Assembly (NCBI GenBank): GCA_030650095.1
Contig: JAUSEE010000036.1
Location: forward strand, 6,490-70,489
DNA: 64,000 bases
Source: Candidatus Buchananbacteria bacterium
GTDB lineage: Bacteria > Patescibacteriota > Patescibacteriia > 2-01-FULL-39-33
Reading direction: 5' to 3'
In this document: piece by piece, positions 6,799-49,802 of the stretch
Layout of the letters: each line of letters begins with the position of its first letter
How positions within the stretch are numbered: the stretch's first letter is position 1
Notes under the pieces: generated by a model
Told to the model about the DNA's origin: nothing
Seen by the model: the letters and a program-made list of their open reading frames with translations, nothing else
Databases searched by the model: none
Program-made: the position numbers and the translations under genes

Positions 6799-7905
6799 TT
6801 AAGATTCGTATTGCCCCAGGGTTTCTAAGGCGCATTTTTCCCAAGAATACTTTTTTAAATTGGCTTGGCCCTTAATTTTCAATGCTTGAAGAAGTTCTTG
6901 ATTATCTAAGGTATTAGAAATAGACTTAGCTATTTCAGTTTCATTTTCCGGATTAAAATAAACAACGCTATCGCCCAATATCTCCGGCAGGCAAGAGGCC
7001 GATGAGCTTAAAACCGGCAAGCCGTAGCTCTGGGCTTCCAACGGCGGCAAGCCAAAGCCTTCAATTAAACTTGGGAAAACATATAAAGCGGCAGTTTTAT
7101 AAAGACATGATAATTTTTCATCATCCAAATAACCGGTAAAGATAACTCGGCCGCTTAAACTTAGCGTTTGGGCGGTTTGTTCCAACCTCTCATAAAAATA
7201 ATTTTTCTGGCCCACCAAAACCAACTGGATGTCCCTATTCAGACTTTTAAACGCCTGGAGCAACTTTTCTAAATTCTTATGCGGATAAGCCGAGCCGACA
7301 TAAAGCAAGAAATCTTTTTTAATGCCCAAATCAGACTTTAGCCGGGCGCAATCAGCCTGGCCATCTTGGGGCAAACCAACCCCTTCATAGGTAACGCTTA
7401 TTTTTGAGGGATTTATTTTTAATAATTTTATAATGTCTTTTTTACTGCAGTCGGAAACAGTAATTATTTTCTTAGCTCTTTTGGCCGTATTGTTTACCAC
7501 TAAGCGATAAAAAAATAATTTTATCTTATACATTATCGGATTCAAGGTGGTGGCTCGGCTATGGGGATAATGGGAAATTATCAGATCATGAATGGTAACA
7601 ATAAACGGGCGCCGATAAAAAACAGGCGCATTAAAATGAGTAAAATGCATTAAATCAAGTTGGTATTTTTTCAACAGCCGCGGAAAAAATATTTGTTCTC
7701 CTAAGCTGTAAGCCCTGAAATCAGCCAAAACCTTTTTAAAATTTTTGCTTTGCGGCTGATAATCATTAAAATTATTTTGGGCCAAAAAAATAAAATACTG
7801 ATTTTTAGAATCAATTTTTTCCAATTGTTTGATTAGGTTTTCGCTGTAGCGTCCCAGACCGCCGTGTCTGGCGCCGTATAAGCGGGCGTCAATTCCTATG
7901 CGCAT
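6799..7905 (-). CDS. Glycosyltransferase family 4 (GT-B fold)
   Basis: 368 aa with the C-terminal GT4 signature EGFGLPPLEAQSYGLPVLSS. Confidence 0.8.
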   Translation of the reverse strand: MRIGIDARLYGARHGGLGRYSENLIKQLEKIDSKNQYFIFLAQNNFNDYQPQSKNFKKVLADFRAYSLGEQIFFPRLLKKYQLDLMHFTHFNAPVFYRRPFIVTIHDLIISHYPHSRATTLNPIMYKIKLFFYRLVVNNTAKRAKKIITVSDCSKKDIIKLLKINPSKISVTYEGVGLPQDGQADCARLKSDLGIKKDFLLYVGSAYPHKNLEKLLQAFKSLNRDIQLVLVGQKNYFYERLEQTAQTLSLSGRVIFTGYLDDEKLSCLYKTAALYVFPSLIEGFGLPPLEAQSYGLPVLSSSASCLPEILGDSVVYFNPENETEIAKSISNTLDNQELLQALKIKGQANLKKYSWEKCALETLGQYES

Positions 7906-8015
7906 ACCTTGATTTTAAACCTTGACAAAAAAGTTATTTTATGATAAGTTACATTATCAGTATATAGTTTAATCAGAACTTTAACAACATTTACAACCAG
8001 AAAGAGGAAAATAAC

Positions 8016-8207
8016 ATGGGTGTCATTAATATGATATTTTCCGTTATTTGTGTATTTTTGGCTTTAATGTCATATTCAAAACTTACTCCAGACGAATCAT
8101 TAGTCCAGAACAAGATGTATTTTTTAATACTAGCATCTATTTTGTTTTCACTTTGGGCTATATCTCATAAAATTGATTATCTTATTAAAGAAATCAGAAA
8201 GAAATAG
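8016..8207 (+). CDS. Small hydrophobic membrane peptide (63 aa)
   Basis: Shine-Dalgarno sequence agaggaaaataac precedes the ATG. One or two predicted TM helices. Confidence 0.4.
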   Translation: MGVINMIFSVICVFLALMSYSKLTPDESLVQNKMYFLILASILFSLWAISHKIDYLIKEIRKK

Positions 8208-8352
8208 AAACAAATAGTCATGACTGTAAAATATACGCCCAAACAACTTGGTGTTATTATAATCACAGTGATAATAGTAGTTTATTTCACCTTTCTCTGC
8301 GGCAATCTGCTGGGAGCAATATTTTAGAAACCAACAAGGAGATCAGTAATTT

Positions 8353-8595
8353 ATGAAAACAGTAAGTCTGCTAGCGATTATTATTTGCATCTGCGGCCTG
8401 TTTATCGGCTCTGCTCTGCTCCTGGATAGGTCGTCAGGAATCGGCCAGATTTTAAACGATCAAGAAGTTAGTTCTACAACAGCCGTTTTCCACTACATCT
8501 TCTGGTTTTTAAGCGGGGGCGTATCTTTCTCGGCAACTATTTGGCTCTTAGCCAGTAGCGAGGGCCGGCAAAAAAAAGAGAGGGAGAGAAAATGA
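8353..8595 (+). CDS. Small membrane protein (80 aa)
   Basis: Shine-Dalgarno sequence aaggagatcagtaattt precedes the ATG. Two hydrophobic helices. Confidence 0.45.
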   Translation: MKTVSLLAIIICICGLFIGSALLLDRSSGIGQILNDQEVSSTTAVFHYIFWFLSGGVSFSATIWLLASSEGRQKKERERK

Positions 8596-34923: not shown

Positions 34924-36129
34924 TTATTTCATATTTAAAGCTCCGGGGCGCAAAACAGTTATCCGGCCTGATACCACTTTAATCAAAGCTGATAGCTGGC
35001 TTACTACTTTCCCCTGGTCAATATAAAAATCAACATTATTGCTAAAATATCTTTTGGCTTGCTTGATGGTTAGGGCTGGCTCCTGGCCTTCAGGATTAGC
35101 GCTGGGCGCTACCAAGGGACCGGTTTTTTTAAGCAGCGCCATAAGCCAACTATTATTGGGCCATCTGAAAGCCAGCGAATCGGTGCCCCGATGAAGATAG
35201 GATAATTTTTTGTCGCAATTTAAAATAATGCTCACCGGCCCCGGCCAGTATTTTTTTATGATTTTTTCGGTCGGCTGATCGATTTTTACGCCGAATTTTT
35301 TTAAGTCAGCCAAAGAACTGATTAAAATTATAAAAGGCTTATCCGGATTTCTCTTTCTAATCTTATAAATCCTTCCTACCGCCTTTTTATCCCAAGCTCG
35401 CCCGACTAAGCCGTAAATGGTATCGGTGGGAATAATGCCAACACCGCCTTTTTTTAGAATATCAATTCTTTGAGCCAAATATTTTTTAGCCAAGGCTTCC
35501 AAACTTATAGCTTGGTTAATCTTAAAATTTCCAACTCTGGTTCTTTTTAAACTGGACATATAAGCACCCGTTGATAAGCTTGTACCTATATCCCTAGCCA
35601 ATGATCTGATGTAAACTCCCGGGCCGGTAACAACTTTTATTTTAAGATCGGGCCATTTGTATTTTAAAATTTTAAGGCTCTTAATTTCCACCGGCCGAGA
35701 TTTTAATTCCACCGGCCGGCCGGACCGGGCTAATTTGTAAGCCCGCTCCCCGCCAAGCCTAATGGCGCTGTAAGCCGGCGGAACCTGGCTAATTGTACCG
35801 ATAAAATTTTTAACAACACTATTAATCTCCTTAAGAGTTATAGGCCGTACATTAGGCGTTTTATTCTTTCGGCCTTCGCTGTCATCAGTGCTGCTGGATA
35901 AGCCCAGTTTGATGCCCGCAATATATTCTTTTTCTTTTTCAACTATTTGGCTTAATTTTTTAGTGGCTTCCCGGCCCAAACCGACCACTAAAACGCCCTC
36001 GGCCAAAGGATCCAAAGTGCCGGCATGGCCCACACTCGGCTCGCCGGTGGATTTTTTTATTTTATTTATAATACCAAAAGAACTTATTCTTTTAGGCTTA
36101 CTGATGGTAAAAATATTGACTGCTTTCAT
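34924..36129 (-). CDS. Fusion protein: TruB-like tRNA pseudouridine(55) synthase catalytic domain (N-terminal) joined to a TsaC/YrdC/Sua5-like L-threonylcarbamoyladenylate synthase domain (C-terminal)
   Basis: N-terminal half: GHAGTLDPLAEGVLVVGLG, YIAGIKLGLSSSTDDSEG and ISQVPPAYSAIRLGGERAY, which are TruB motifs. C-terminal half: KKGGVGIIPTDTIYGLVGRAWDKKAVGRIYKIRKRNPDKPFIILISS, the YrdC signature. No PUA domain. Confidence 0.7.
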   Translation of the reverse strand: MKAVNIFTISKPKRISSFGIINKIKKSTGEPSVGHAGTLDPLAEGVLVVGLGREATKKLSQIVEKEKEYIAGIKLGLSSSTDDSEGRKNKTPNVRPITLKEINSVVKNFIGTISQVPPAYSAIRLGGERAYKLARSGRPVELKSRPVEIKSLKILKYKWPDLKIKVVTGPGVYIRSLARDIGTSLSTGAYMSSLKRTRVGNFKINQAISLEALAKKYLAQRIDILKKGGVGIIPTDTIYGLVGRAWDKKAVGRIYKIRKRNPDKPFIILISSLADLKKFGVKIDQPTEKIIKKYWPGPVSIILNCDKKLSYLHRGTDSLAFRWPNNSWLMALLKKTGPLVAPSANPEGQEPALTIKQAKRYFSNNVDFYIDQGKVVSQLSALIKVVSGRITVLRPGALNMK

Positions 36130-41483: not shown

Positions 41484-41586
41484 TTAACTTAATTTGGAAC
41501 TTTATAACTTAATATTTATATTGCCAAGCGAACAAGTATTGTATCACCAAGTCCACCAACGGTCAACATTAAGGAGGAAACTGACA

Positions 41587-42033
41587 ATGAACTCGAAAAT
41601 ATTCAAAAGGCCTTATTCCAAAGTGGAAATAACCGATCACAGCATCTCCGGTAATATGCTTTTCCGCAAAATAGAATCATGGCTGGAAGCGGAACCATCG
41701 GTGCTGATCTGGGAGACCAGTTACTACGAACCCCCGGCAATGCAGGGATTCGACAGCCAGAAACGGGAGATCGCTGTGCCAAGATACGGCTGGACGATTG
41801 AATTCCAATTTGATCGAGCCAATGCCGCTGCCAAAGACGGATACTATGATGGCGTCGCCATTATCGCCGGAACCATCACGCACAGTCTGGAAATAGCCGG
41901 TGAAAAATCCCGGGAAGCTTACAAATTATCCTGTAGCTCGCGTAACTTTCGGGGAGAAGCGACTTTCACATCAGCCGTTGAACTCTGGAAAACATTCACC
42001 AATTTGGGACTAAGAAAAACCACCACACCCTAA
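41587..42033 (+). CDS. GC-rich (about 50%) gene encoding a 148-aa hypothetical protein
   Basis: Shine-Dalgarno sequence aaggaggaaactgacaATG. Intrinsic terminator (accgcggtaaattatcgcggt plus T-run) at 42034-42060. No recognised motif. The supplied ORF begins at the earlier Met at 41494. Confidence 0.55.
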   Translation: MNSKIFKRPYSKVEITDHSISGNMLFRKIESWLEAEPSVLIWETSYYEPPAMQGFDSQKREIAVPRYGWTIEFQFDRANAAAKDGYYDGVAIIAGTITHSLEIAGEKSREAYKLSCSSRNFRGEATFTSAVELWKTFTNLGLRKTTTP

Positions 42034-43895: not shown

Positions 43896-43897
43896 AG

Positions 43898-43971
43898 TGG
43901 ATGATACTGGATTCGAACCAGTGACCTTTCGGACGTGAACCGAACGCTCTAACCAACTGAGCTAAACATCC
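43898..43971 (-). tRNA. tRNA-Val (anticodon CAC)
   Basis: Minus strand reads GGATGTTTAGCTCAGTTGGTTAGAGCGTTCGGTTCACGTCCGAAAGGTCACTGGTTCGAATCCAGTATCATCCA. The cloverleaf folds with one T:T mismatch in the acceptor stem. Anticodon loop is TTCACGT. Confidence 0.8.
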
Positions 43972-43989
43972 TTGATGTGCTTAAAAAAC

Positions 43990-44170
43990 AATCCTCTTTT
44001 TATTATCAATACACATCAGACCTTACGGTCTGAACGCTCTATCCTGGGTTGGCGTAAAATCCTGCGCCAGCTCGGATTTTTCGACGCTCAACTGCACCTC
44101 GCTTTAGCTCGGCTTGTTTTGCTTCCAACCCGTCGCTAAAAAGCGACCCAACTGAGCTAAACATCCTTGA
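43990..44170 (-). pseudogene. Degenerate partial duplication of tRNA-Val (5' 20 nt identical, D and anticodon region diverged, about 90-nt insertion, no T-arm)
   Basis: The 23-mer ccaactgagctaaacatccttga is directly repeated at 43953-43975 and 44148-44170. The upstream copy continues as …CGCCAACCCAGGATAGAGCGTTCAGACCGTAAGGTCTGA but cannot form a full cloverleaf. Confidence 0.5.
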
Positions 44171-44180
44171 TTTATATATT

Positions 44181-44217: not shown

Positions 44218-44651
44218 TAAAAATTAAACATTTCATCACTCAAATCCCTCCACGTAGGATTTAAAGTTTTAATTAAATTTTGCTTCTTTTCTCTTCGCCA
44301 TTTTTTGAGTTGTTTCTCCCTAGCCAGTGCTTCACCAATATCCGTATTGTATTCATAAATGAACCCGACCTCGCTCTAAAGAGCGAGGTATCTGGGCGGT
44401 TTCAAATGGAAGGTGTCGGCTCCGCCGACATATTTCTCCTCACACTGCCCTTCATCCCCTGGCTTAAAAGCCAGGGGTATTCGGGCAGCAACATTATAAA
44501 CTAATTTTTTACAATCATATTTTTTAGTAAAACCATCAATCAATTTTTGTTTATGCTCCCAAATCCTCTTTTCTAAATTATTAGTAATACCTATGTACAA
44601 AGTGCCACTCTCACTAGCCATGATGTAAATATAATAATATTTATTATTCAT
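44218..44651 (-). pseudogene. Small GIY-YIG nuclease-family gene interrupted by an in-frame insertion of about 141 bp carrying a TAG stop
   Basis: N-terminal GIY-YIG (YYYIYIMASESGTLYIGITNNLEKRIWEHKQ…GFTKKYDCKKLVY). Then an insert containing the hairpins cccctggcttttaagccagggg and acctcgctctttagagcgaggt and an in-frame TAG. Then the frame resumes with the canonical C-terminus EYNTDIGEALAREKQLKKWRREKKQNLIKTLNPTWRDLSDEMFNF. The supplied ORF (44376-44651) stops inside the insert. Confidence 0.6.
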
Positions 44652-44663
44652 AAATTAGTTTTT

Positions 44664-44745
44664 AAGGGATCCCTCGACTTCGCTCGGGATGACAATAAGT
44701 GTGACTCGGGATGACAATCAATAGAACTCGGGATAGCCTAATTTA
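44664..44745. repeat. Tandem partial copies of the GGGATCCCTCGAC…CTCGGGATGAC repeat
   Basis: gggatccctcgacttcgctcgggatgacaataagtgtgactcgggatgacaatcaatagaactcgggatagcc. Confidence 0.55.
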
Positions 44746-44891: not shown

Positions 44892-45461
44892 TTAAAGTGC
44901 CAAAATTTCAGCGATGGCAGCGAGCTTGCCGGCTTCATCAACTGGGAAAGCGATGCCATTAACCAAAATCGCCAGCAATTCATCCTGATCGGTAGAAAGC
45001 TCTACATCAATTTCGTCTCCGTTGCCGACCAAATCCTGCAAATTGGCGTCCTCTTCGTCAACCGTGACAGAAATTACGCTATCCGGATCAATGCCGACAA
45101 CATCGCGAAGAATGTTGGCAATGGTATCTGGAGTTTCCAAAGCATAATCTTGGCCATTGACCGTGCAAGTAAGCACACCGGAGCCATCATTACCCTTGAT
45201 CTTGGTGATAATCAAAATGACATCTCCATTACAAAGTGGCGTGGTCTTGATGCTGCCGACATAGCCCTTGTCCGGATCAATTTCTGCAACATTGGAAAAC
45301 ATCTTTTTATTCACGCGGACTTCTCGGCCGCCAGTCAATGCAACCCACTCAACTTCTGGCTTAATTTCTTCGGCCTTGACAGCCACATCCATAACCGTGC
45401 CACCATCAGGAACGGTAACGTCAAGAATTGGACCTGGAACAACCATAATCTGCACGTTCAT
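44892..45461 (-). CDS. Ubiquitin-like protein with two ThiS/MoaD-type beta-grasp domains and a C-terminal tail of about 20 aa after a conserved Gly (candidate BilA-like Ubl)
   Basis: Shine-Dalgarno sequence acaggagaagcagaaATG. Domain 2 (LTCTVNGQDYALETPDTIANILRDVVGIDPDSVISVTV…LVGNGDEIDVE…LLAILVNG) fits the ThiS/MoaD/Ub beta-grasp pattern. Domain 1 (VQIMVVPG…TVMDVAV…LCNGDVILIITKIKG) is similar. The tail IAFPVDEAGKLAAIAEILAL follows the putative terminal Gly. Confidence 0.55.
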   Translation of the reverse strand: MNVQIMVVPGPILDVTVPDGGTVMDVAVKAEEIKPEVEWVALTGGREVRVNKKMFSNVAEIDPDKGYVGSIKTTPLCNGDVILIITKIKGNDGSGVLTCTVNGQDYALETPDTIANILRDVVGIDPDSVISVTVDEEDANLQDLVGNGDEIDVELSTDQDELLAILVNGIAFPVDEAGKLAAIAEILAL

Positions 45462-45517: not shown

Positions 45518-46213
45518 CTAATCTGAGGCAACTCCGTCACCGATAATCACCATCGGACGAGCGCAGACAATCAACTCCTTTTGATAATCCTCGCCATTAA
45601 ACCATTTAATCAGCTTCCAAACTGCTACGGAAGCAATATAGGAAACAGTGGGTGAAATAGACCTGTTAGTGCAAGGCGATTCCTCCGCTTCTTCGTCGCT
45701 ATAAAGTGTACTTTCCCACATCCGAATATCGGAGAGGTTCGATGGTAGAATAGCATAAACCCGGCCGTTGTCAATGGCCATTCTGGTTTCTACCATAAAT
45801 TTAACCGGCAACTTGAATTTTAGAGCGCCGTCCCAAATATCACGGCGTATATCCATGGAATCAACCATTAAGAAAATTACGCCTTTTAATTTGGAATTGG
45901 CGGTTACCGCTTCATTATGAGCGGTAATTCCTATGCCGGTAGCTTCCAAGATTATTTCCTGCAAAGCCTCAACCTTGGGCCGGCCGACATCTTTCAGGCG
46001 ATAAACCTGGTTAGGCAAATTATGATCTTCAACTTCGTCAAAGTCATAAACATGGATATCTTGGACGCCCATCTTAGCCAGGAGATAAGCCACATAACTG
46101 CCGGTGGCTCCGACTCCGATAACATGGACTTCATCTTGGAATTTACCTGGGTCAAACAAATCCAATTGCCGCCAATAATCAACCCTGACAATTTCTTGTT
46201 CTTGATTTGCCAT
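45518..46213 (-). CDS. E1-like adenylyltransferase (ThiF/MoeB/UBA family)
   Basis: Nucleotide-binding motif VHVIGVGATGSYVAYLLAKMGVQDIHVYDFDEVEDHNLPNQ, the E1/ThiF Rossmann signature. Cys-containing catalytic region (…EESPCTN…). Start at MANQEQE (46213) or at an upstream Met (46246) that overlaps the JAB gene. Confidence 0.7.
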   Translation of the reverse strand: MANQEQEIVRVDYWRQLDLFDPGKFQDEVHVIGVGATGSYVAYLLAKMGVQDIHVYDFDEVEDHNLPNQVYRLKDVGRPKVEALQEIILEATGIGITAHNEAVTANSKLKGVIFLMVDSMDIRRDIWDGALKFKLPVKFMVETRMAIDNGRVYAILPSNLSDIRMWESTLYSDEEAEESPCTNRSISPTVSYIASVAVWKLIKWFNGEDYQKELIVCARPMVIIGDGVASD

Positions 46214-46220
46214 ATCTTCA

Positions 46221-47126
46221 TTATTCCAAGGAAGCCCAGATGCCATCCCATTCTCGAACAATATCAAATTCAGCTGGCGGAGAGAAATTGCCATTACTGT
46301 CCTCTGCCGGAACAAGATCGCCTTCGGTTAAGGCCTCTTCTTGTCCCTCTGAATTACCTTCATGAAAAACATGTCTGCCCTTCCGGCGAGTGTAGACTGG
46401 AGACTCTTGTCCCTTTCTATGCCAACGATACATCGGTTGTCCGGGAGCTGGCCCAGAAGACAGACTCTTAATAACTGCCTGTTGATATTGATAATTAGGA
46501 ACTGTCTGAATAAAAACCTCTCTGGAAACTTTTTCCGCCACTTGAGCTTGCCAATATTCCTGCCTTTGAGCGTCAACAGGAGTGTAAATCTGCCAAGGAA
46601 TATCATGCCAAACAACCCCGCGCTTATAATCAAACAAGGAAAATTCAGCCCGGCCACCGCGTCCGAAAATGCCGCGCAGAAACCACTCATTGTGGCTGAA
46701 GAGCTTCATTTGATCATTATCTTGCGATGACGCATCAGTGGAATTGCTCGGATGGACATGGCCCCAAAACAAAATACTGGAGCAAAGTTCCGGATTTTCC
46801 CTGGCTAAATCAGTAAACAAATCAGCCAAGCCGTCTTCGGTCATTTCCGTGGTAGCACCGTGGACTGTCTGATTGATCAAGAAAATCTGTTCTATTAAAA
46901 ACTCATACTCGGCCAAAATCCTGACACTGCCCAGCCAGCCGATTTCATCACTGCCGCTTAATTGGGCGATAGCGAGCATATCGCTGTAGGCTTCGGGTTT
47001 GATAAGAACTTTGGGAATTGATTTTTGGGAAATAGTTGTTTGTCTGGGCTCGAATGGATGGGGAGAGAATGCCTCCGCTCCCGAAGATTTATATTGAGTT
47101 GACGCAACATAAGGATGTTGATGCAT
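46221..47126 (-). CDS. JAB/JAMM (MPN+) metalloprotease, candidate deubiquitinase-like peptidase
   Basis: Exact JAMM motif E-x(n)-HVHPSNSTDASSQD, that is H-x-H-x7-S-x2-D. The start codon overlaps the upstream stop (TGATG). Shine-Dalgarno sequence aaggag 9 nt upstream. Confidence 0.75.
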   Translation of the reverse strand: MHQHPYVASTQYKSSGAEAFSPHPFEPRQTTISQKSIPKVLIKPEAYSDMLAIAQLSGSDEIGWLGSVRILAEYEFLIEQIFLINQTVHGATTEMTEDGLADLFTDLARENPELCSSILFWGHVHPSNSTDASSQDNDQMKLFSHNEWFLRGIFGRGGRAEFSLFDYKRGVVWHDIPWQIYTPVDAQRQEYWQAQVAEKVSREVFIQTVPNYQYQQAVIKSLSSGPAPGQPMYRWHRKGQESPVYTRRKGRHVFHEGNSEGQEEALTEGDLVPAEDSNGNFSPPAEFDIVREWDGIWASLE

Positions 47127-49483
47127 CACTGGGCTAACTCCTTTTTGGTTTTTTCTACCGCCGTCCAATACTTAAATATTTCACTGCCAGCCAGATCATC
47201 CAAATTGACAGTTTCCAAATATTGAATCGCTAGTGAAGTTATGGCCGCAAACTGATATTCGGCGATAAGCTGGGCAATCATTTCTTGAATATTGCCCAAA
47301 CACGGCTCGCCCCTAGAATTAACATGGGGATGGTTAATGTTATAACCATTATAACCGCCGGCGGCCTGCCTGGTGGTATTGAAAAAAAGAAGGCCGCCAT
47401 TAGCACCATCCAAAAATATTTCTATGCGGAATTTGCCGATATCAAAAGTGAATTCTTTACCGGCTTTGTCCTTGCAAGTAATGTAAATATTGTAAGTGTG
47501 CACAATCAGCTTGCCATCCTTGGCCGTAACATTTTCCACTCCTTCAATATCAAAAAGACGATTATACTCGGTCTCAAAACCGGTTTTATCACTGGCTGTA
47601 ATATTTTTCAAAATCTTCAATTTCTGCTGCGCCTCTTTTTCTTGGCGTATTTTATTGACTAATTCTTTCTGTAAAGCGGCAACCGCCTTAGTCCATTCAG
47701 TAATAGACCTACTTAGATCGAGGCTGGCCCTTTCCTGCCTATCTTGGCAGAGGTTAACATAGCCGTCCATCGCCCTTCGGCGACGAATTTCTTTAATCGC
47801 CTTATCGCGCTCAATTTTTTCTGCCGGTGTCTTATTCAGCTCTATTACCGTTAATTCCAAAATACGACGATAAATATCAATCCCACCACTCATTTCCCTA
47901 TAGCCCAAGGGGATATAAATATACAAATTATGGTCCAATAACTCCGCTACGGTAAAAAGCGATTCGCTATCTATAATTTCCACACCCATGTCGATTGGTT
48001 TAAAATACTGCCAACCATAACGACTATTATTAGTACTAAAGCCGAAAATTTTGTCCGGCATATCAACTTTGTCCGATAAAGTATTATTAGCTGGTGCGGC
48101 ATGTAGCCAAATATGGAATAAATTATCATTAATAGGCTGAAACATTTTTCTAAGTCCTTGACAATTATGACAAATAATTTTCTTATTTAAAACCGGCAAA
48201 AGAATGTTCTCGGTCTCGGTTTTCATTTTAGCCATATTACCGACACGGTTAGAATTATTGAAAATAACCACCTGAGGAGCATTAATCAAAGCCAATCTTT
48301 CCTCGGAGCTCAATTTAAATATATTAGCTGTTTCCTCTAGTACCTTTTCCAAAATGGCATAATCATCTGATCTGTCCTTATGGACAGCATCATGGAAAAT
48401 ATAAAGATTATTGCCAATAACCTCGGCTACCGCATAACCCTCTGTTTCTGCTATAACTATGCCCAAACCAGAGGGCAAATAAGACCCATCGGCACAACCA
48501 ATCCTATGACCCCACATTATTGGCGGAGTTTCAACTTCACAATTGCCAGAGGGAGCCGACCAGATATTAATATGCAGAAATCTGCCAGCTTTGTCATCGG
48601 GGATAGGCTCAAAAAGATGTTGGTGAGGCACCCTAACTATGGCGCCATGAAAAATTTCTCTCGGCAATATTCGCTCAATAATGTCTTTCAATTTATCTTG
48701 CACCATTTCGCCATCCCAACTTTTAAAGATAATATCCATCGGCAAAAGCTTTCGCGCTTCTTCAACACTAGCAGCCAAAAGAACAGGCAAATATTTTTTG
48801 ATCTGCTGACTTATTGCCCGGCCATAAACTTCATCCGGACAATTAGGAATTTTTCTAAAACAAATCAGGCGTTTGGTTGGGTAATATTCAATATCAAGCA
48901 ACAAATCACAATCAGTTGTTAATTCGGCTTCAGCCATATTCAAAAATCTGCCCAAAACTATATTGAGCTGATCTGTAACTGGGCTAATACTTAATGTATC
49001 GTCTACAAGACCTTCATGGAAAACAATTTTTTTAACACCGCTGGCCTCAGTTAAAATATCCCTGTATAAATCAGGATAATACTGGGGCGAGAAATGTCTC
49101 ATAACATTGTTTAATAATTGCGCCCAATGATCGCATCTGGTGCCCTTGGGTTTGGAAACTGTCAGATCGGGGTATTGTATTTTTACTTCCTCCACGGGAG
49201 TTTCTTCTGCTATTTCATCAGCCACTTCTTCATCTTCAAATACTGAGAAATCAAAATTAACAGTATTGGAAGGTGCCACTGCCAATTTTACTATACCGGG
49301 AATACTGGTTTCGCTATGTTCAAAAACATCAAAGCCCAAAATACCCAAAGCGTTAACAATATTATTTTGCTCAAAAACCAAACCATTCCAGCCATCAATT
49401 TCCATTTTTACAAAAGATATTTGAGCCACTATGAGTTTTTTTTGCTTTTTATTAGAGACATCTGCAATAAAGAAATTACGCAT
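47126..49483 (-). CDS. Large protein (785 aa) with a C-terminal E2/UBC-like domain, plus about 600 aa of unassigned N-terminal sequence and a coiled-coil
   Basis: Shine-Dalgarno sequence aaaggagaaaactATG. The C-terminus …GYNGYNINHPHVNSRGEPCLGNIQEMIAQL… matches the E2 catalytic signature HPN-x3/4-G-x-[IP]-C-L. First gene of a four-gene operon with translational coupling. Confidence 0.65.
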   Translation of the reverse strand: MRNFFIADVSNKKQKKLIVAQISFVKMEIDGWNGLVFEQNNIVNALGILGFDVFEHSETSIPGIVKLAVAPSNTVNFDFSVFEDEEVADEIAEETPVEEVKIQYPDLTVSKPKGTRCDHWAQLLNNVMRHFSPQYYPDLYRDILTEASGVKKIVFHEGLVDDTLSISPVTDQLNIVLGRFLNMAEAELTTDCDLLLDIEYYPTKRLICFRKIPNCPDEVYGRAISQQIKKYLPVLLAASVEEARKLLPMDIIFKSWDGEMVQDKLKDIIERILPREIFHGAIVRVPHQHLFEPIPDDKAGRFLHINIWSAPSGNCEVETPPIMWGHRIGCADGSYLPSGLGIVIAETEGYAVAEVIGNNLYIFHDAVHKDRSDDYAILEKVLEETANIFKLSSEERLALINAPQVVIFNNSNRVGNMAKMKTETENILLPVLNKKIICHNCQGLRKMFQPINDNLFHIWLHAAPANNTLSDKVDMPDKIFGFSTNNSRYGWQYFKPIDMGVEIIDSESLFTVAELLDHNLYIYIPLGYREMSGGIDIYRRILELTVIELNKTPAEKIERDKAIKEIRRRRAMDGYVNLCQDRQERASLDLSRSITEWTKAVAALQKELVNKIRQEKEAQQKLKILKNITASDKTGFETEYNRLFDIEGVENVTAKDGKLIVHTYNIYITCKDKAGKEFTFDIGKFRIEIFLDGANGGLLFFNTTRQAAGGYNGYNINHPHVNSRGEPCLGNIQEMIAQLIAEYQFAAITSLAIQYLETVNLDDLAGSEIFKYWTAVEKTKKELAQ

Positions 49484-49692: not shown

Positions 49693-49771
49693 GTCATTGC
49701 GAGCATAGCGAAGCAATCCCATTTAATCAAATACGGGATTGCTTCAGTCGCTTAAGCTCCTTCGCAATGAC
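49693..49771. repeat. Palindromic repeat element (GTCATTGCGAGcatagcgaagcaatccc …spacer… gggattgcttcag…CTTCGCAATGAC)
   Basis: 79-bp composite inverted repeat at the upstream boundary of the Ubl/E1/JAB/E2 island. Confidence 0.65.
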
Positions 49772-49802
49772 AATTATTGTTATATTTTATCTAATTTAAA
49801 AC

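Follow-up and report, generated by a model that had tools for sequence, protein, structure and literature searches.

The window analysed (the whole stretch of DNA, 64,000 nucleotides) was found to carry an operon of four genes in the order E2-like protein, JAB peptidase, E1 and ubiquitin-like protein (Ubl), all of which are encoded on the minus strand. The arrangement is syntenic and conserved in Buchananbacteria. The coordinates of the genes and of the features discussed below are collected in Table 1.

Table 1. Genes and protein features of the Ubl operon, in window coordinates.
Feature	Position	Strand	Description
Ubl precursor gene	44892..45461	-	189 aa plus stop codon
Ubl domain 1, residues 1–91	45189..45461	-	ThiS/MoaD-like beta-grasp; homologue of the 68-aa 'KGN unit' of phage and metagenome relatives
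Gly90-Asn91 codons (GGT AAT), end of T-K-I-K-G-N	45189..45194	-	Proposed site of JAB processing and E1 activation
Ubl domain 2, residues 97–155	44997..45173	-	Second beta-grasp, ThiS-like; tail without Gly
Acidic linker STDQDELLA, residues 156–164	44970..44996	-	No regular secondary structure except short turns; pLDDT ~78–80
C-terminal mini-module, residues 165–189	44895..44969	-	Beta-hairpin plus helix
Gly169 codon	44955–44957	-	Hairpin turn
E1 gene	45518..46213	-	Minimal single-domain ThiF-type, 231 aa from ATG at 46213; Pfam ThiF
E1 GxGxxG motif	46097–46117	-	
E1 conserved crossover-loop Cys codon	45671–45673	-	
JAB/JAMM metallopeptidase gene	46221..47168	-	Longest ORF, 315 aa; likely start ATG at 47126
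JAB catalytic Glu codon	46944–46946	-	
JAB HxHx7Sx2D motif	46719–46760	-	
E2-like large protein gene	47126..49483	-	785 aa; variable N-terminal region, coiled coil, C-terminal E2/UBC-like domain
E2/UBC-like domain	47129–47560	-	~140 aa
E2-like HPHVNSRGEPC motif	47300–47332	-	

The Ubl shares 100% identity with a hypothetical protein recorded at NCBI for Candidatus Buchananbacteria, and 40 homologues were obtained by sequence search. Its AlphaFold2 model (mean pLDDT 89.6) has two beta-grasp domains of b-b-a-b-b topology, spanning residues 2–89 and 97–155, and the best Foldseek matches in the PDB were linear di-ubiquitin and ISG15 (E 2e-6 to 1e-5). The tandem beta-grasp Ubl claimed in the first-pass annotation of this DNA is thus borne out. 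Domain 1 is modelled with strands at residues 2–8, 12–16, 46–50, 53–56 and 81–89 and helices at 23–33 and 39–45, and domain 2 with strands at 97–101, 104–108, 129–134 and 149–155 (...GDEIDVELS) and a helix at 114–122. Domain 2 gave weak matches to Pfam ThiS over residues 101–153 (E 0.011) and to TIGR01683 thiS over residues 99–136 (E 3e-4). In the alignment of the 40 homologues D149 is invariant, no Gly is conserved past residue 148, and conservation within domain 2 and the tail further includes A107, L108, P111, G146, G178 and I183. The linker that follows domain 2 is rich in Asp and Glu in the homologues and varies in length. It leads to a mini-module with strands at 165–167 and 170–172 and a helix at 176–188 (pLDDT 91–95), whose b1-b2-a1 arrangement is like that of a ThiS-like domain over its first half; a profile of the tail aligned with positions 3–23 of domain 2 at an hhalign E of 0.002 and a probability of 14%. 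Among homologues this mini-module can be missing or doubled, or its place can be taken by a coiled coil or by a complete third beta-grasp. The protein ends in ...AEILAL, with no Gly-Gly, or Gly within a few residues of the C-terminus.

The first-pass annotation had read the residues ...DELLAILVNG-IAFPVDEAGKLAAIAEILAL, which are present in the Ubl, as the end of the second beta-grasp followed by a disposable pro-peptide of about 20 residues. According to this reading, JAB would cut after Gly169 to take off the final 20 residues, leaving the tandem protein of residues 1–169 to be activated at that Gly. The AlphaFold2 model puts this Gly beyond the end of domain 2: the last strand of domain 2 ends at residue 155, the acidic linker intervenes, and Gly169 lies in the turn of a separate C-terminal hairpin, with confidently modelled paired strands on either side rather than a flexible tail. 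The two residues before it are V-N, and Gly is found at this position in 27 of the 40 homologues, without exception in the two closest tail subtypes. However, the column is without Gly in the other 13; it is Ala in six, and in five it is absent along with the whole module. Removal of a C-terminal extension by a JAB does have a precedent in BilA, where a universally conserved Gly is followed by at most nine non-conserved residues, whereas the 20 residues after Gly169 are helical and conserved (G178, I183, I/V186). Further, the module aligns with b1-b2-a1 of domain 2, in which the equivalent 'VNG' is a turn; it is doubled in tandem in two homologues (P0055 and P0027), and relatives from phages are entirely without such a tail. 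Processing and activation at Gly169 are considered very improbable, and the Gly169 tail would instead be part of an appended module. The broader idea of a precursor trimmed by JAB is a reasonable one, since the Ubl is encoded with an intact JAB/JAMM peptidase, a ThiF-type E1 and an E2-like protein; it is the Gly169 site that is wrong. The JAB gene, which had been described as adjacent, is in the same operon but lies two genes off, with the E1 gene in between.

A better candidate for a processing site is found at the end of domain 1. The motif T-K-I-K-G-N directly follows the last strand of this domain and precedes a linker (residues 92–96; pLDDT 67–78) with indels and variable length; it is the counterpart in position of L-R-L-R-G-G in ubiquitin. 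G90 and N91 are present in 40 of 40 homologues and are the only residues invariant to this extent that are positioned like the ubiquitin tail, while conservation at T86, K87 and I88 is 90% or higher.

The same motif terminates a unit of 68 residues found in phage and metagenome relatives. The profile of this unit aligned end to end with domain 1 (unit positions 1–68 to residues 1–91; hhalign probability 98.8%, E 5e-17). Its last residues are KIKGN, and it occurs either singly or as two to at least four copies arranged head to tail, with every copy ending in K-G-N or, rarely, G-A or G-G. True repeats were identified in P0063, P0064, P0066-68, P0071-72, L017, L018, L071 and L073, of which L017 and L018 are three-unit precursors. 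Within one multi-unit protein the units are 40–99% identical; KGN is the very C-terminus of six of these proteins, and in four others it is followed by one to three further residues. The Buchananbacteria Ubl itself comprises one KGN unit and one non-KGN beta-grasp, so that it is not a head-to-tail repeat. Forty-three unique Ubl ORFs were found beside the same E1 in viral contigs, of which 22 end exactly at ...GN, nine have one residue after GN and one has two; the other ends include ...GA (five ORFs) and GG followed by two residues (one ORF). The Ubl of locus L014, of 71 aa, ends in IKGA, and a lower-scoring Ubl (L078) ends in VVGG.

Processing of the Ubl by JAB is plausible, and its most likely site, judged from the sequence, is G90-N91, where a cut would release a modifier of ~90 aa and a C-terminal fragment of 99 aa. 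The 'extension' would accordingly most likely amount to ~99 residues, made up of domain 2 and the tail, and not to 20, since G90-N91 is invariant and tail-like and the units of the relatives end there. Some points do weigh against cleavage. A near-invariant Asn is not accounted for by a simple cap, and the KGN motif could have another role, for instance in docking to E1 or E2 without being cut. Domain 2 and the tail also show good conservation, for which reason the function may reside in them and domain 1 may be an accessory. No natural split gene encoding domain 1 alone was found in the cellular subfamily.

The E1 is a small enzyme. Its longest ORF (265 aa) extends back to a TTG at 46315 and contains a single ThiF domain over residues 62–243 of that ORF, with a Pfam ThiF score of 82.8 bits against a gathering cut-off of 28.1. 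Matches in the PDB comprised UBA3, MccB (E 1.6e-5), ThiF, MoeB, UBA5, BubCD and PaaA (E 4e-6), and phrog_15670 was also matched (5e-25). Four motifs are invariant in seven orthologues: GxGATGS (GVGATGS in this protein), DFD.VE.HN, ETRM and AExSxC. The conserved Cys of the crossover loop is residue 215 of the 265-aa ORF.

JAB is predicted from its sequence to be catalytically intact. Residue E75 and the stretch H137-V-H-PSNSTDA-S-SQ-D150 (numbered on the 315-aa ORF) match the catalytic and zinc site of JAMM enzymes, and E(IGWLG) and W.H.H-x7-S.QD are invariant in seven orthologues. All seven PDB matches of the family profile were to Rpn11 and were aligned on the motif, with E-values of only ~0.8–1.2. 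No Pfam match was obtained for JAB, and the PADLOC JAB model matched 24 residues (E 0.006).

The putative assignment of the 785-aa protein as E2-like is drawn from a motif, a profile alignment and structural matches. The motif HPHVNSRGEPC has the same spacing as HPNINSNGSIC of UBC proteins (the HPN-x7-Cys active-site loop). The pattern P-H-[VI]-x4-G-x2-C-x-G, mostly followed by N, is invariant, with P, H, G and C present in all eight to nine relatives; the Cys is residue 728 of the 785-aa protein. A profile of the domain aligned with four human E2s over 85 columns at an hhalign probability of 43.9% (E 2.4e-4), and with UBE2D2 alone over the 21-residue active-site loop at 19.6%. Its AlphaFold2 model (pLDDT 78, pTM 0.75) had UbcH5b (E 0.1) and Ube2W (E 0.4) as the top two Foldseek matches in the PDB, neither of which is significant. 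The alignment behind this model was shallow (nine sequences), as the word-indexed homologue search returned only two and then six proteins. Single-sequence searches of the PDB were uninformative for JAB and for the 785-aa protein, and the profile of the E2-like domain matched only cyanovirin and ankyrin entries there, which were dismissed as spurious.

The four genes occur together in all eight metagenome and genome loci with enough flanking sequence, and in 49 of the 66 IMG/VR viral loci gathered by scanning with the E1 alignment. A scan of viral contigs with the full family alignment of the cellular Ubl subfamily did not find that subfamily. The phage cassettes, some of them on contigs of more than 200 kb, have replication and recombination genes as neighbours. 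GenBank labels the phage homologues of the E1 'thiamine biosynthesis protein', likely in error. Three of the four proteins have no Pfam, NCBIfam, PHROG or PADLOC family match, and comparison with curated defence models gave no sequence match beyond the generic Rossmann region of the E1; the cassette as a whole matches no curated family. A description of it was not found in the literature searched, which does not prove that none exists. A related ThiF (31% identity) with a JAMM-motif neighbour is present in Flavobacterium FpV4 and crAss-like phages; these were left out, as profiles detected no E2-like protein or KGN-type Ubl.

It could be argued that the Ubl is instead a ThiS/MoaD-type thiocarboxylate carrier which serves, with the ThiF-like enzyme, in the synthesis of a cofactor or metabolite, with JAB acting in the manner of Mec+ or QbsD. 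The weak ThiS matches of the Ubl, the E1 being closest to ThiF among NCBIfam models and the GenBank name of its phage homologues all point in that direction. A sulfur carrier of this kind is, however, scarcely credible here: the Ubl has no C-terminal Gly-Gly, no rhodanese, ThiG/ThiH, MoaE or cysteine-synthase partner is present in the operon, the cassette is accompanied by an E2-like protein with an invariant Cys, and in phages it is placed amid replication and recombination genes.

The Ubl is probably the modifier component of a four-gene conjugation cassette, with domain 1 (residues 1–90 or 1–91) as the functional modifier, freed by JAB at G90-N91. From the observed folds, motifs, conservation, operon and distribution we infer the following steps of processing, activation and conjugation. 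The Ubl would be made as a precursor, and JAB would cut at the invariant Gly90-Asn91 dipeptide to free domain 1. The cut may fall after Gly90, by analogy with BilC and BubC, which cut after a conserved Gly; alternatively it may fall after Asn91, since most stand-alone relatives end exactly in ...G-N. The E1 would then adenylate the new C-terminus of domain 1, and the modifier would be handed to the conserved Cys of the E1 and on to that of the E2-like protein. The N-terminal part of the E2-like protein, which is large and variable, would choose the target to which the modifier is attached, and JAB would also reverse the conjugation. Domain 2 and the hairpin-helix tail (~99 aa) would be a lineage-specific C-terminal fusion partner, which may be either a separate released product or a cap that holds the modifier inert.

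It is less likely, if conceivable, that no internal cleavage takes place and that the full-length Ubl serves, without being conjugated, as an adaptor or regulator, such as a scaffold for one of the enzymes (E1 or E2-like) or for a target, with the KGN motif kept in the cellular subfamily as a binding or structural element. This would accommodate the conserved residues of domain 2 and the tail, and a divergence in function is conceivable for the cellular subfamily, given that viral contigs yielded no member of it. Bacterial Ubls with several domains, Ubl3 for example, are also reported to remain intact and to polymerise. An invariant dipeptide within a disordered, indel-rich linker is, however, hard to account for structurally, and many relatives have the KGN motif as their literal C-terminus. 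The operon retains the E1, the E2-like Cys and the JAB active site in intact form, implying production and use of a free C-terminus. Release of domain 1 at G90-N91 is thus the preferred reading.

Among known systems, BilABCD shares the four components with the cassette (Ubl, E2, JAB peptidase and E1), and Type I BilA likewise has two beta-grasp domains. BilC pre-processes BilA at the conserved Gly, as at Gly97 before a single capping Ala98. The first-pass annotation had likened the tandem domains to BilA; nevertheless the operon is not a Bil system, being set apart by gene order, E1 architecture and the Ubl C-terminus. The Bil order is bilA(Ubl)-bilB(E2)-bilC(JAB)-bilD(E1), whereas the cassette begins with the E2-like gene and ends with the Ubl. 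Its E1 is a single adenylation domain in place of a tandem IAD-AAD with a CYS domain, and its E2-like domain is the C-terminus of the 785-aa protein. Unlike in BilA, the conserved Gly of this Ubl is followed directly by an invariant Asn and then by 98 more residues.

Bub operons (6E/DUF6527), especially Type I BubAB, are similar in having the Ubl as a fusion precursor. In Type I BubAB a JAB cleaves after an internal conserved Gly to give a modifier and a functional C-terminal partner, as BubCD does with a Ubl-E2 fusion, and a similar course can be pictured for the present Ubl. The Bub E1 is also of the minimal homodimeric ThiF/UBA5-like type, in keeping with BubCD being among the PDB matches of the E1. 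However, the fusion partner here is a beta-grasp with a mini-module and not an E2, JAB and E1 are separate proteins, and a Pfam search found no DUF6527/BubE gene in the operon. Bub systems use Ser and oxyester intermediates, while the crossover loop of the E1 and the loop of the E2-like protein keep an invariant Cys. Membership of the Bub group was ruled out on the separate genes, the lack of DUF6527 and the retained Cys.

Eukaryotic polyubiquitin ends with a capping residue, which is Asn in yeast UBI4. The multi-unit relatives resemble it in having two to at least four units head to tail, a tail motif on each and a last unit often capped by zero to three residues, and the Buchananbacteria Ubl, in which a single modifier precedes an unrelated C-terminal partner, is comparable to a ubiquitin-fusion precursor. 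They differ in that the tail is K-G-N rather than R-G-G, with the residue after Gly almost always Asn, that the peptidase is a JAMM enzyme of the same operon, that the units are ThiS/MoaD-like by sequence, and that cleavage is putative.

A further comparison is with MccB/MccA of microcin C7, in which MccB adenylates its substrate peptide on the C-terminal Asn, and with other ThiF-like enzymes that act on C-termini other than Gly. The best PDB matches of the E1 include MccB and PaaA, and Asn is the last residue in most of the stand-alone relatives of domain 1. The MccB match is limited to the nucleotide-binding region of the E1 (residues 28–91), though, and this enzyme is without the N-terminal peptide-clamp domain; its substrate would be a folded beta-grasp protein, and E2-like and JAB partners are present.

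In the tail-assembly genes of phages lambda and T1, the phage-borne Ubl TAPI is ThiS/MoaD-like and carries an appended domain at its C-terminus. The adjacent JAB of TAPK (JAB plus NlpC/P60) is predicted to cut it at the last Gly of the Ubl part (Iyer et al., 2006). These features liken it to the cassette, but TAPI and TAPK have no E1 or E2, and the cassette neighbours replication and recombination genes in place of tail genes.

Recent work has established bacterial E1/E2/JAB/Ubl operons (CBASS Cap2/Cap3, Bil and Bub) as functional ubiquitination-like pathways that act in defence against phages. The cassette follows the same logic, is abundant in phage genomes and is also present in CPR bacteria. 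Its head-to-tail KGN repeats are, among those found, the closest prokaryotic parallel to polyubiquitin genes. Tentatively, and by analogy with MccB, the cassette might be a largely phage-borne, uncurated Ubl conjugation system with polyubiquitin-style precursors, built of one to at least four units head to tail or of a unit fused to cargo as in the Buchananbacteria gene, in which the mature modifier would end in Asn (K-G-N-COOH) instead of Gly and be activated by the minimal ThiF-type E1, perhaps through a succinimide route before transfer to the E2-like Cys. In the Buchananbacteria version, cleavage by JAB at G90-N91 would be the licensing step. If true, activation of a C-terminal Asn would represent new chemistry for protein-protein conjugation. 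Two likely annotation errors are corrected here, namely the naming of the phage E1 as a thiamine biosynthesis protein and the placing of the Ubl processing site at the last Gly. If the site is G90-N91, the Buchananbacteria gene is a natural modifier-cargo fusion and, with its three partners, a simple four-gene test system for asking how a JAMM peptidase licenses a Ubl, whether an E1 uses a C-terminal Asn and how phages use Ubl conjugation of their own.

The Ubl protein was found to be identical to a hypothetical protein from a Candidatus Buchananbacteria MAG and to have 40 homologues at E <= 1e-25. The AlphaFold2 model made from the alignment of these homologues was confident (mean pLDDT 89.6), and its top Foldseek matches in the PDB were linear di-ubiquitin and ISG15 (E 2e-6 to 1e-5). 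The two beta-grasp domains of the model and these matches therefore confirm the tandem beta-grasp proposed in the first-pass annotation. That annotation also ended the second beta-grasp at ...DELLAILVNG, with the adjacent JAB removing the last ~20 residues after Gly169, a boundary which the model contradicts, as domain 2 stops near residue 155 and Gly169 forms the turn of an extra hairpin.

Positions of the features discussed (window numbering unless another contig or residues of the Ubl protein are named)
Feature	Position	Strand	Remark
TruB-Sua5/YciO/YrdC ORF	34924-36129	-	401 aa
Candidate ORF between uvrA and uvrB	41494-42033	+	179 aa; no Pfam match
tRNA-Val(CAC)	43897-43971	-	between uvrB and cassette
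24-nt exact direct repeat	43953-43976 / 44148-44171		second copy 195 nt away
GIY-YIG nuclease-domain ORF	44376-44651	-	91 aa; Pfam 1.5e-9
22-nt motif, two tandem copies	44683-44726		CTCGGGATGACAAT...
Ubl ORF	44892-45461	-	189 aa
E2-like ORF	47126-49483	-	785 aa
22-nt motif, third copy	49761-49782		73% identity
Ubl domain 1, beta-grasp (AlphaFold2)	strands 2-8, 12-16, 46-50, 53-56, 81-89; helices 23-33, 39-45
Ubl linker after domain 1 (AlphaFold2)	residues 90-96		low confidence, block pLDDT 67-78
Ubl domain 2, second beta-grasp (AlphaFold2)	strands 97-101, 104-108, 129-134, 149-155; helix 114-122
Ubl acidic linker (AlphaFold2)	residues 156-164
Ubl C-terminal module (AlphaFold2)	hairpin 165-167 + 170-172; helix 176-188		pLDDT 91-95
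E2-like paralogues, L007	2561-4042, 4039-5196		tandem
Four-unit poly-Ubl gene P0063, L012	3400-4266
E1, L014	7872-8126, 8078-8545		overlapping ORFs within 7872-8545
Flavobacterium phage FpV4 locus, L081 (NC_041872.1)	58995-69510		includes gp51

Across the 40-sequence alignment the invariant residues (P9, G10, V23, R46-E-V-R-V50, N57, G69, T74, L76, G90, N91, and D149) all lie within domain 1, except D149. The T-K-I-K-G-N motif ends with G90-N91 immediately after the last strand of domain 1 and is directly followed by a linker variable in both length and sequence. The column of Gly169, which a conserved processing site would occupy in the first-pass reading, holds Gly in only 27 of the 40 homologues (Ala in six, missing in five). 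Beyond about residue 155 the family splits into at least five C-terminal designs, namely the hairpin-helix module of the window (VxVDGxxF...GKLAAIxAIL), a shorter version of it (TVTVNGHTVTGRPEDIRRIL), the module twice in tandem, a full third ThiS-like beta-grasp ending in ...PTTKNG plus 5-9 residues, and coiled-coil or Lys-rich tails without any module. A profile of the module aligned by hhalign with the first 21 positions (b1-b2-a1) of domain 2, placing its VNG on the VNG of the b1-b2 turn, a match which is weak (E 0.002, probability 14%) because the alignment is short. Together with the model, this alignment suggests that the tail is a truncated third ThiS-like repeat and not a pro-peptide.

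When 1.84 billion representative proteins were searched exhaustively with a profile, only 62 matches to the Ubl were obtained, the more distant of which were the most informative. These are made of a 67-74-aa unit (xIKVGxxPGRIxExxLxxGxTVxDAL..AGL...GYEIRVNG......L.DGDxVLLVKKIKGN) present in two, three or four copies head to tail, with [IV]-K-G-N closing every copy, even though copies inside one protein range from 40 to 99% identity. The protein itself ends exactly at ...KGN in six multi-unit relatives, 1-3 residues past it in four and 20 past it in one, and in further relatives a single unit precedes a second beta-grasp and a coiled coil. The unit profile matched the window family with 98.8% probability (hhalign, E 5e-17), unit residues 1-68 aligning with residues 1-91 and KIKGN with KIKGN; this makes domain 1 the conserved, modifier-like unit, and by the alignment G90-N91 matches the literal C-terminus of many relatives. 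With the unit tail located there and Gly169 a poorly kept turn residue, cleavage by JAB at Gly169 is very improbable; the kind of process first proposed, JAB processing of the Ubl, is plausible, but its probable site moves to the KGN motif.

The three genes upstream of the Ubl gene, on the same strand, encode a ThiF-type E1, a protein with a JAMM site and the E2-like protein. When the four products were compared with Pfam, NCBIfam, PHROGs, and PADLOC, none of Ubl, JAB and E2-like protein was clearly matched and E1 alone was (231 aa; Pfam ThiF, 82.8 bits against a cut-off of 28.1; phrog_15670, 5e-25). PDB matches of E1 were UBA3, PaaA, MccB, ThiF, MoeB, UBA5, and BubCD, that to MccB being confined to the Rossmann region, and the invariant Cys of its AExSxC segment would sit at the crossover-loop Cys position of ThiF/MoeB-type enzymes. 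The JAMM site of the JAB is intact, with Glu75 and H137-x-H-x7-S-x2-D150 invariant in seven orthologues, and in the PDB its family profile matched Rpn11 proteins only, with the alignments falling on the motif (E about 0.8-1.2). Support for an E2 fold in the last ~140 residues of the E2-like protein is moderate. This region contains HPHVNSRGEPC, with the spacing of the UBC loop HPNINSNGSIC and with its P, H, G, and C invariant; hhalign against four human E2s gave a probability of 43.9% over 85 columns spanning the GG.F strand, the HPN-Cys loop and the PNPDDP loop. The AlphaFold2 model (pLDDT 78, pTM 0.75) consists of a beta-meander, a long loop and then helices, and its two top Foldseek PDB matches were UbcH5b (E 0.1) and Ube2W (E 0.4). 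The protein is longer in the window than at other loci (~455 aa), and it is the window version whose N-terminal region appears internally duplicated; two tandem paralogues occur at L007 and at many phage loci (L028, L030, L032, L036, L038, L040, L043, and L050). No family was matched by the N-terminal domains of the E2-like proteins.

Scanning IMG/VR with the E1 alignment gave 66 viral loci on contigs of 4.6-223 kb, with recognizable E2-like, JAB, E1 and Ubl genes together in 49 of them, in three gene orders. The 43 unique viral Ubl ORFs end exactly in ...GN (22), in GN plus one (9) or two (1) residues, in ...GA (5), in ...GG plus two (1) or otherwise (5); three of the last group still end in Asn (KSN, KAN, GRN), one ends in KGN plus nine residues and the fifth is a long, multi-unit protein extended at its C-terminus. 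The Ubl of L078, which is not among the 43, ends in VVGG. Multi-unit precursors were found at L017, L018, L035, L043/L044, L047, L071, and L073. L014, an IMG/VR contig found with the unit itself, encodes a 71-aa Ubl ending in IKGA beside E1, JAB and an E2-like gene; its E1 lies in two overlapping ORFs, which could reflect a frameshift, a sequencing error or a pseudogene. On the 8.6-kb contig L012, the neighbours of P0063 are UDG, Rad52-like, radical-SAM and AAA genes, and the contig has neither an E1 nor a JAB nor an E2-like gene; the poly-Ubl may act on its own or rely on enzymes encoded elsewhere in the phage. A ThiF-like protein that shares 31% identity with the E1 of the window and is annotated as a 'thiamine biosynthesis protein' is encoded by cultured phages (the FpV4 group and Bacteroides crAss-like phages); upstream of it FpV4 gp51 has a JAMM-like H-S-H-x7-S-x2-D motif. 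Profiles for KGN-Ubl and E2-like genes detected none at this locus, so it may be a more distant sister cassette.

Because the cassette holds all the parts of a Ubl conjugation pathway, we propose that JAB would cut the precursor at the G90-N91 dipeptide, and that domain 1 would be adenylated by E1, passed as a thioester from the E1 Cys to the E2-like Cys, and joined to targets that the E2-like protein would recognize through its large and variable N-terminal part. JAB would also reverse the modification, and domain 2, together with the tail, would either be released as a partner or serve as an inhibitory cap. As precedents, BilC trims from BilA the one Ala that follows Gly97, and BubCD cuts a fusion of Ubl and E2 after an internal Gly. 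The conservation of domain 2 and the tail would also fit a Ubl acting uncleaved as an adaptor, which is nevertheless rather unlikely, as it explains neither the invariant dipeptide in a disordered linker nor why E1, the E2-like protein and JAB are all intact. A sulfur-carrier role is barely credible for a Ubl that has no Gly-Gly terminus and no sulfur-transfer or biosynthetic partner.

Under the proposed cleavage we cannot decide between Gly90 and Asn91 as the mature end. For Gly90, Gly is the better conserved residue where the next one differs (GA, GG) and, to our knowledge, every characterized JAB-processed Ubl ends in Gly. For Asn91, N is the exact end of about 60% of the stand-alone phage Ubls and no family member was seen to end at the Gly itself; the KSN, KAN and GRN variants lose Gly and keep the terminal Asn, whose conservation is far too high for a mere cap. 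Also in favour of Asn91, [KR]-G-[N/A/G] may be taken as the counterpart of R-G-G in ubiquitin. The ThiF-like enzyme MccB adenylates a C-terminal Asn.

The order E2-like, JAB, E1, Ubl was found at all metagenome or genome loci whose flanks were long enough (L001/L002/L009, L004, L006, L007, L008, L010). L007 (Buchananbacteria) and L008 come from related genomes, and in both uvrB comes after the cassette just as it does in the window; L007 also shares the SOD gene on the other side. Ubl identity to these two is only 55-58%, compared with 83-88% for uvrB, and the cassette is therefore a stable, fast-evolving chromosomal resident of the lineage. Its G+C content is unremarkable, and the extended Ubl was present in only 4 of 185,579 GTDB species representatives. 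Contigs L008 (CAYIBK010000017.1) and L010 (CAZXUK010000004.1) are labelled as 'uncultured Gammaproteobacteria' MAG; L008 is probably a mis-binned CPR contig, because its uvrB is ~88% identical to that of the window and in the same position.

Beside the cassette, the 5' part of the tRNA-Val plus 5 nt upstream recurs as an exact direct repeat, which may be a remnant of an integration or duplication event. Copies of a 22-nt motif lie just downstream of the Ubl gene and just upstream of the E2-like gene and thus bracket the four genes, though the similarity is weak and may be due to chance. Between the cassette and the tRNA-Val region lies the GIY-YIG ORF, which the syntenic loci L007 and L008 lack; in both of them uvrB is nearer to the Ubl gene. 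Elsewhere in the window are a candidate ORF on the opposite strand between the uvr genes, and an ORF with TruB (tRNA pseudouridine synthase) N- and C-terminal domains and a Sua5/YciO/YrdC domain, an unusual fusion that would unite two tRNA-modification activities.

In its logic the cassette is similar to Bil and Bub but lacks their defining features: for Bil, the gene order, the E1 with tandem domains and a Gly with no more than 9 variable residues after it; for Bub, the fusions, DUF6527 and Ser-based catalysis. In the Ubl3 proteins described for Bil and Bub, the beta-grasp domains remain together and form filaments. Iyer et al. (2006) noted bacterial Ubls of 2-3 repeats 'reminiscent of poly-ubiquitin' and predicted that JAB cuts phage TAPI at the last Gly of the Ubl domain, so the idea is old; the cassette and the KGN signature were not found in the literature searched. 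The multi-unit relatives are the closest prokaryotic analogue of polyubiquitin genes found. The cassette is a compact E2-like/JAB/E1/Ubl set common to phages and CPR bacteria, and in this genome the K-G-N-tailed modifier is fused to a second beta-grasp and a mini-module. Its interest lies mainly in how widely phages carry it, in the poly-Ubl precursors and in the possible Asn terminus, all of them open to direct tests that need only four small genes.
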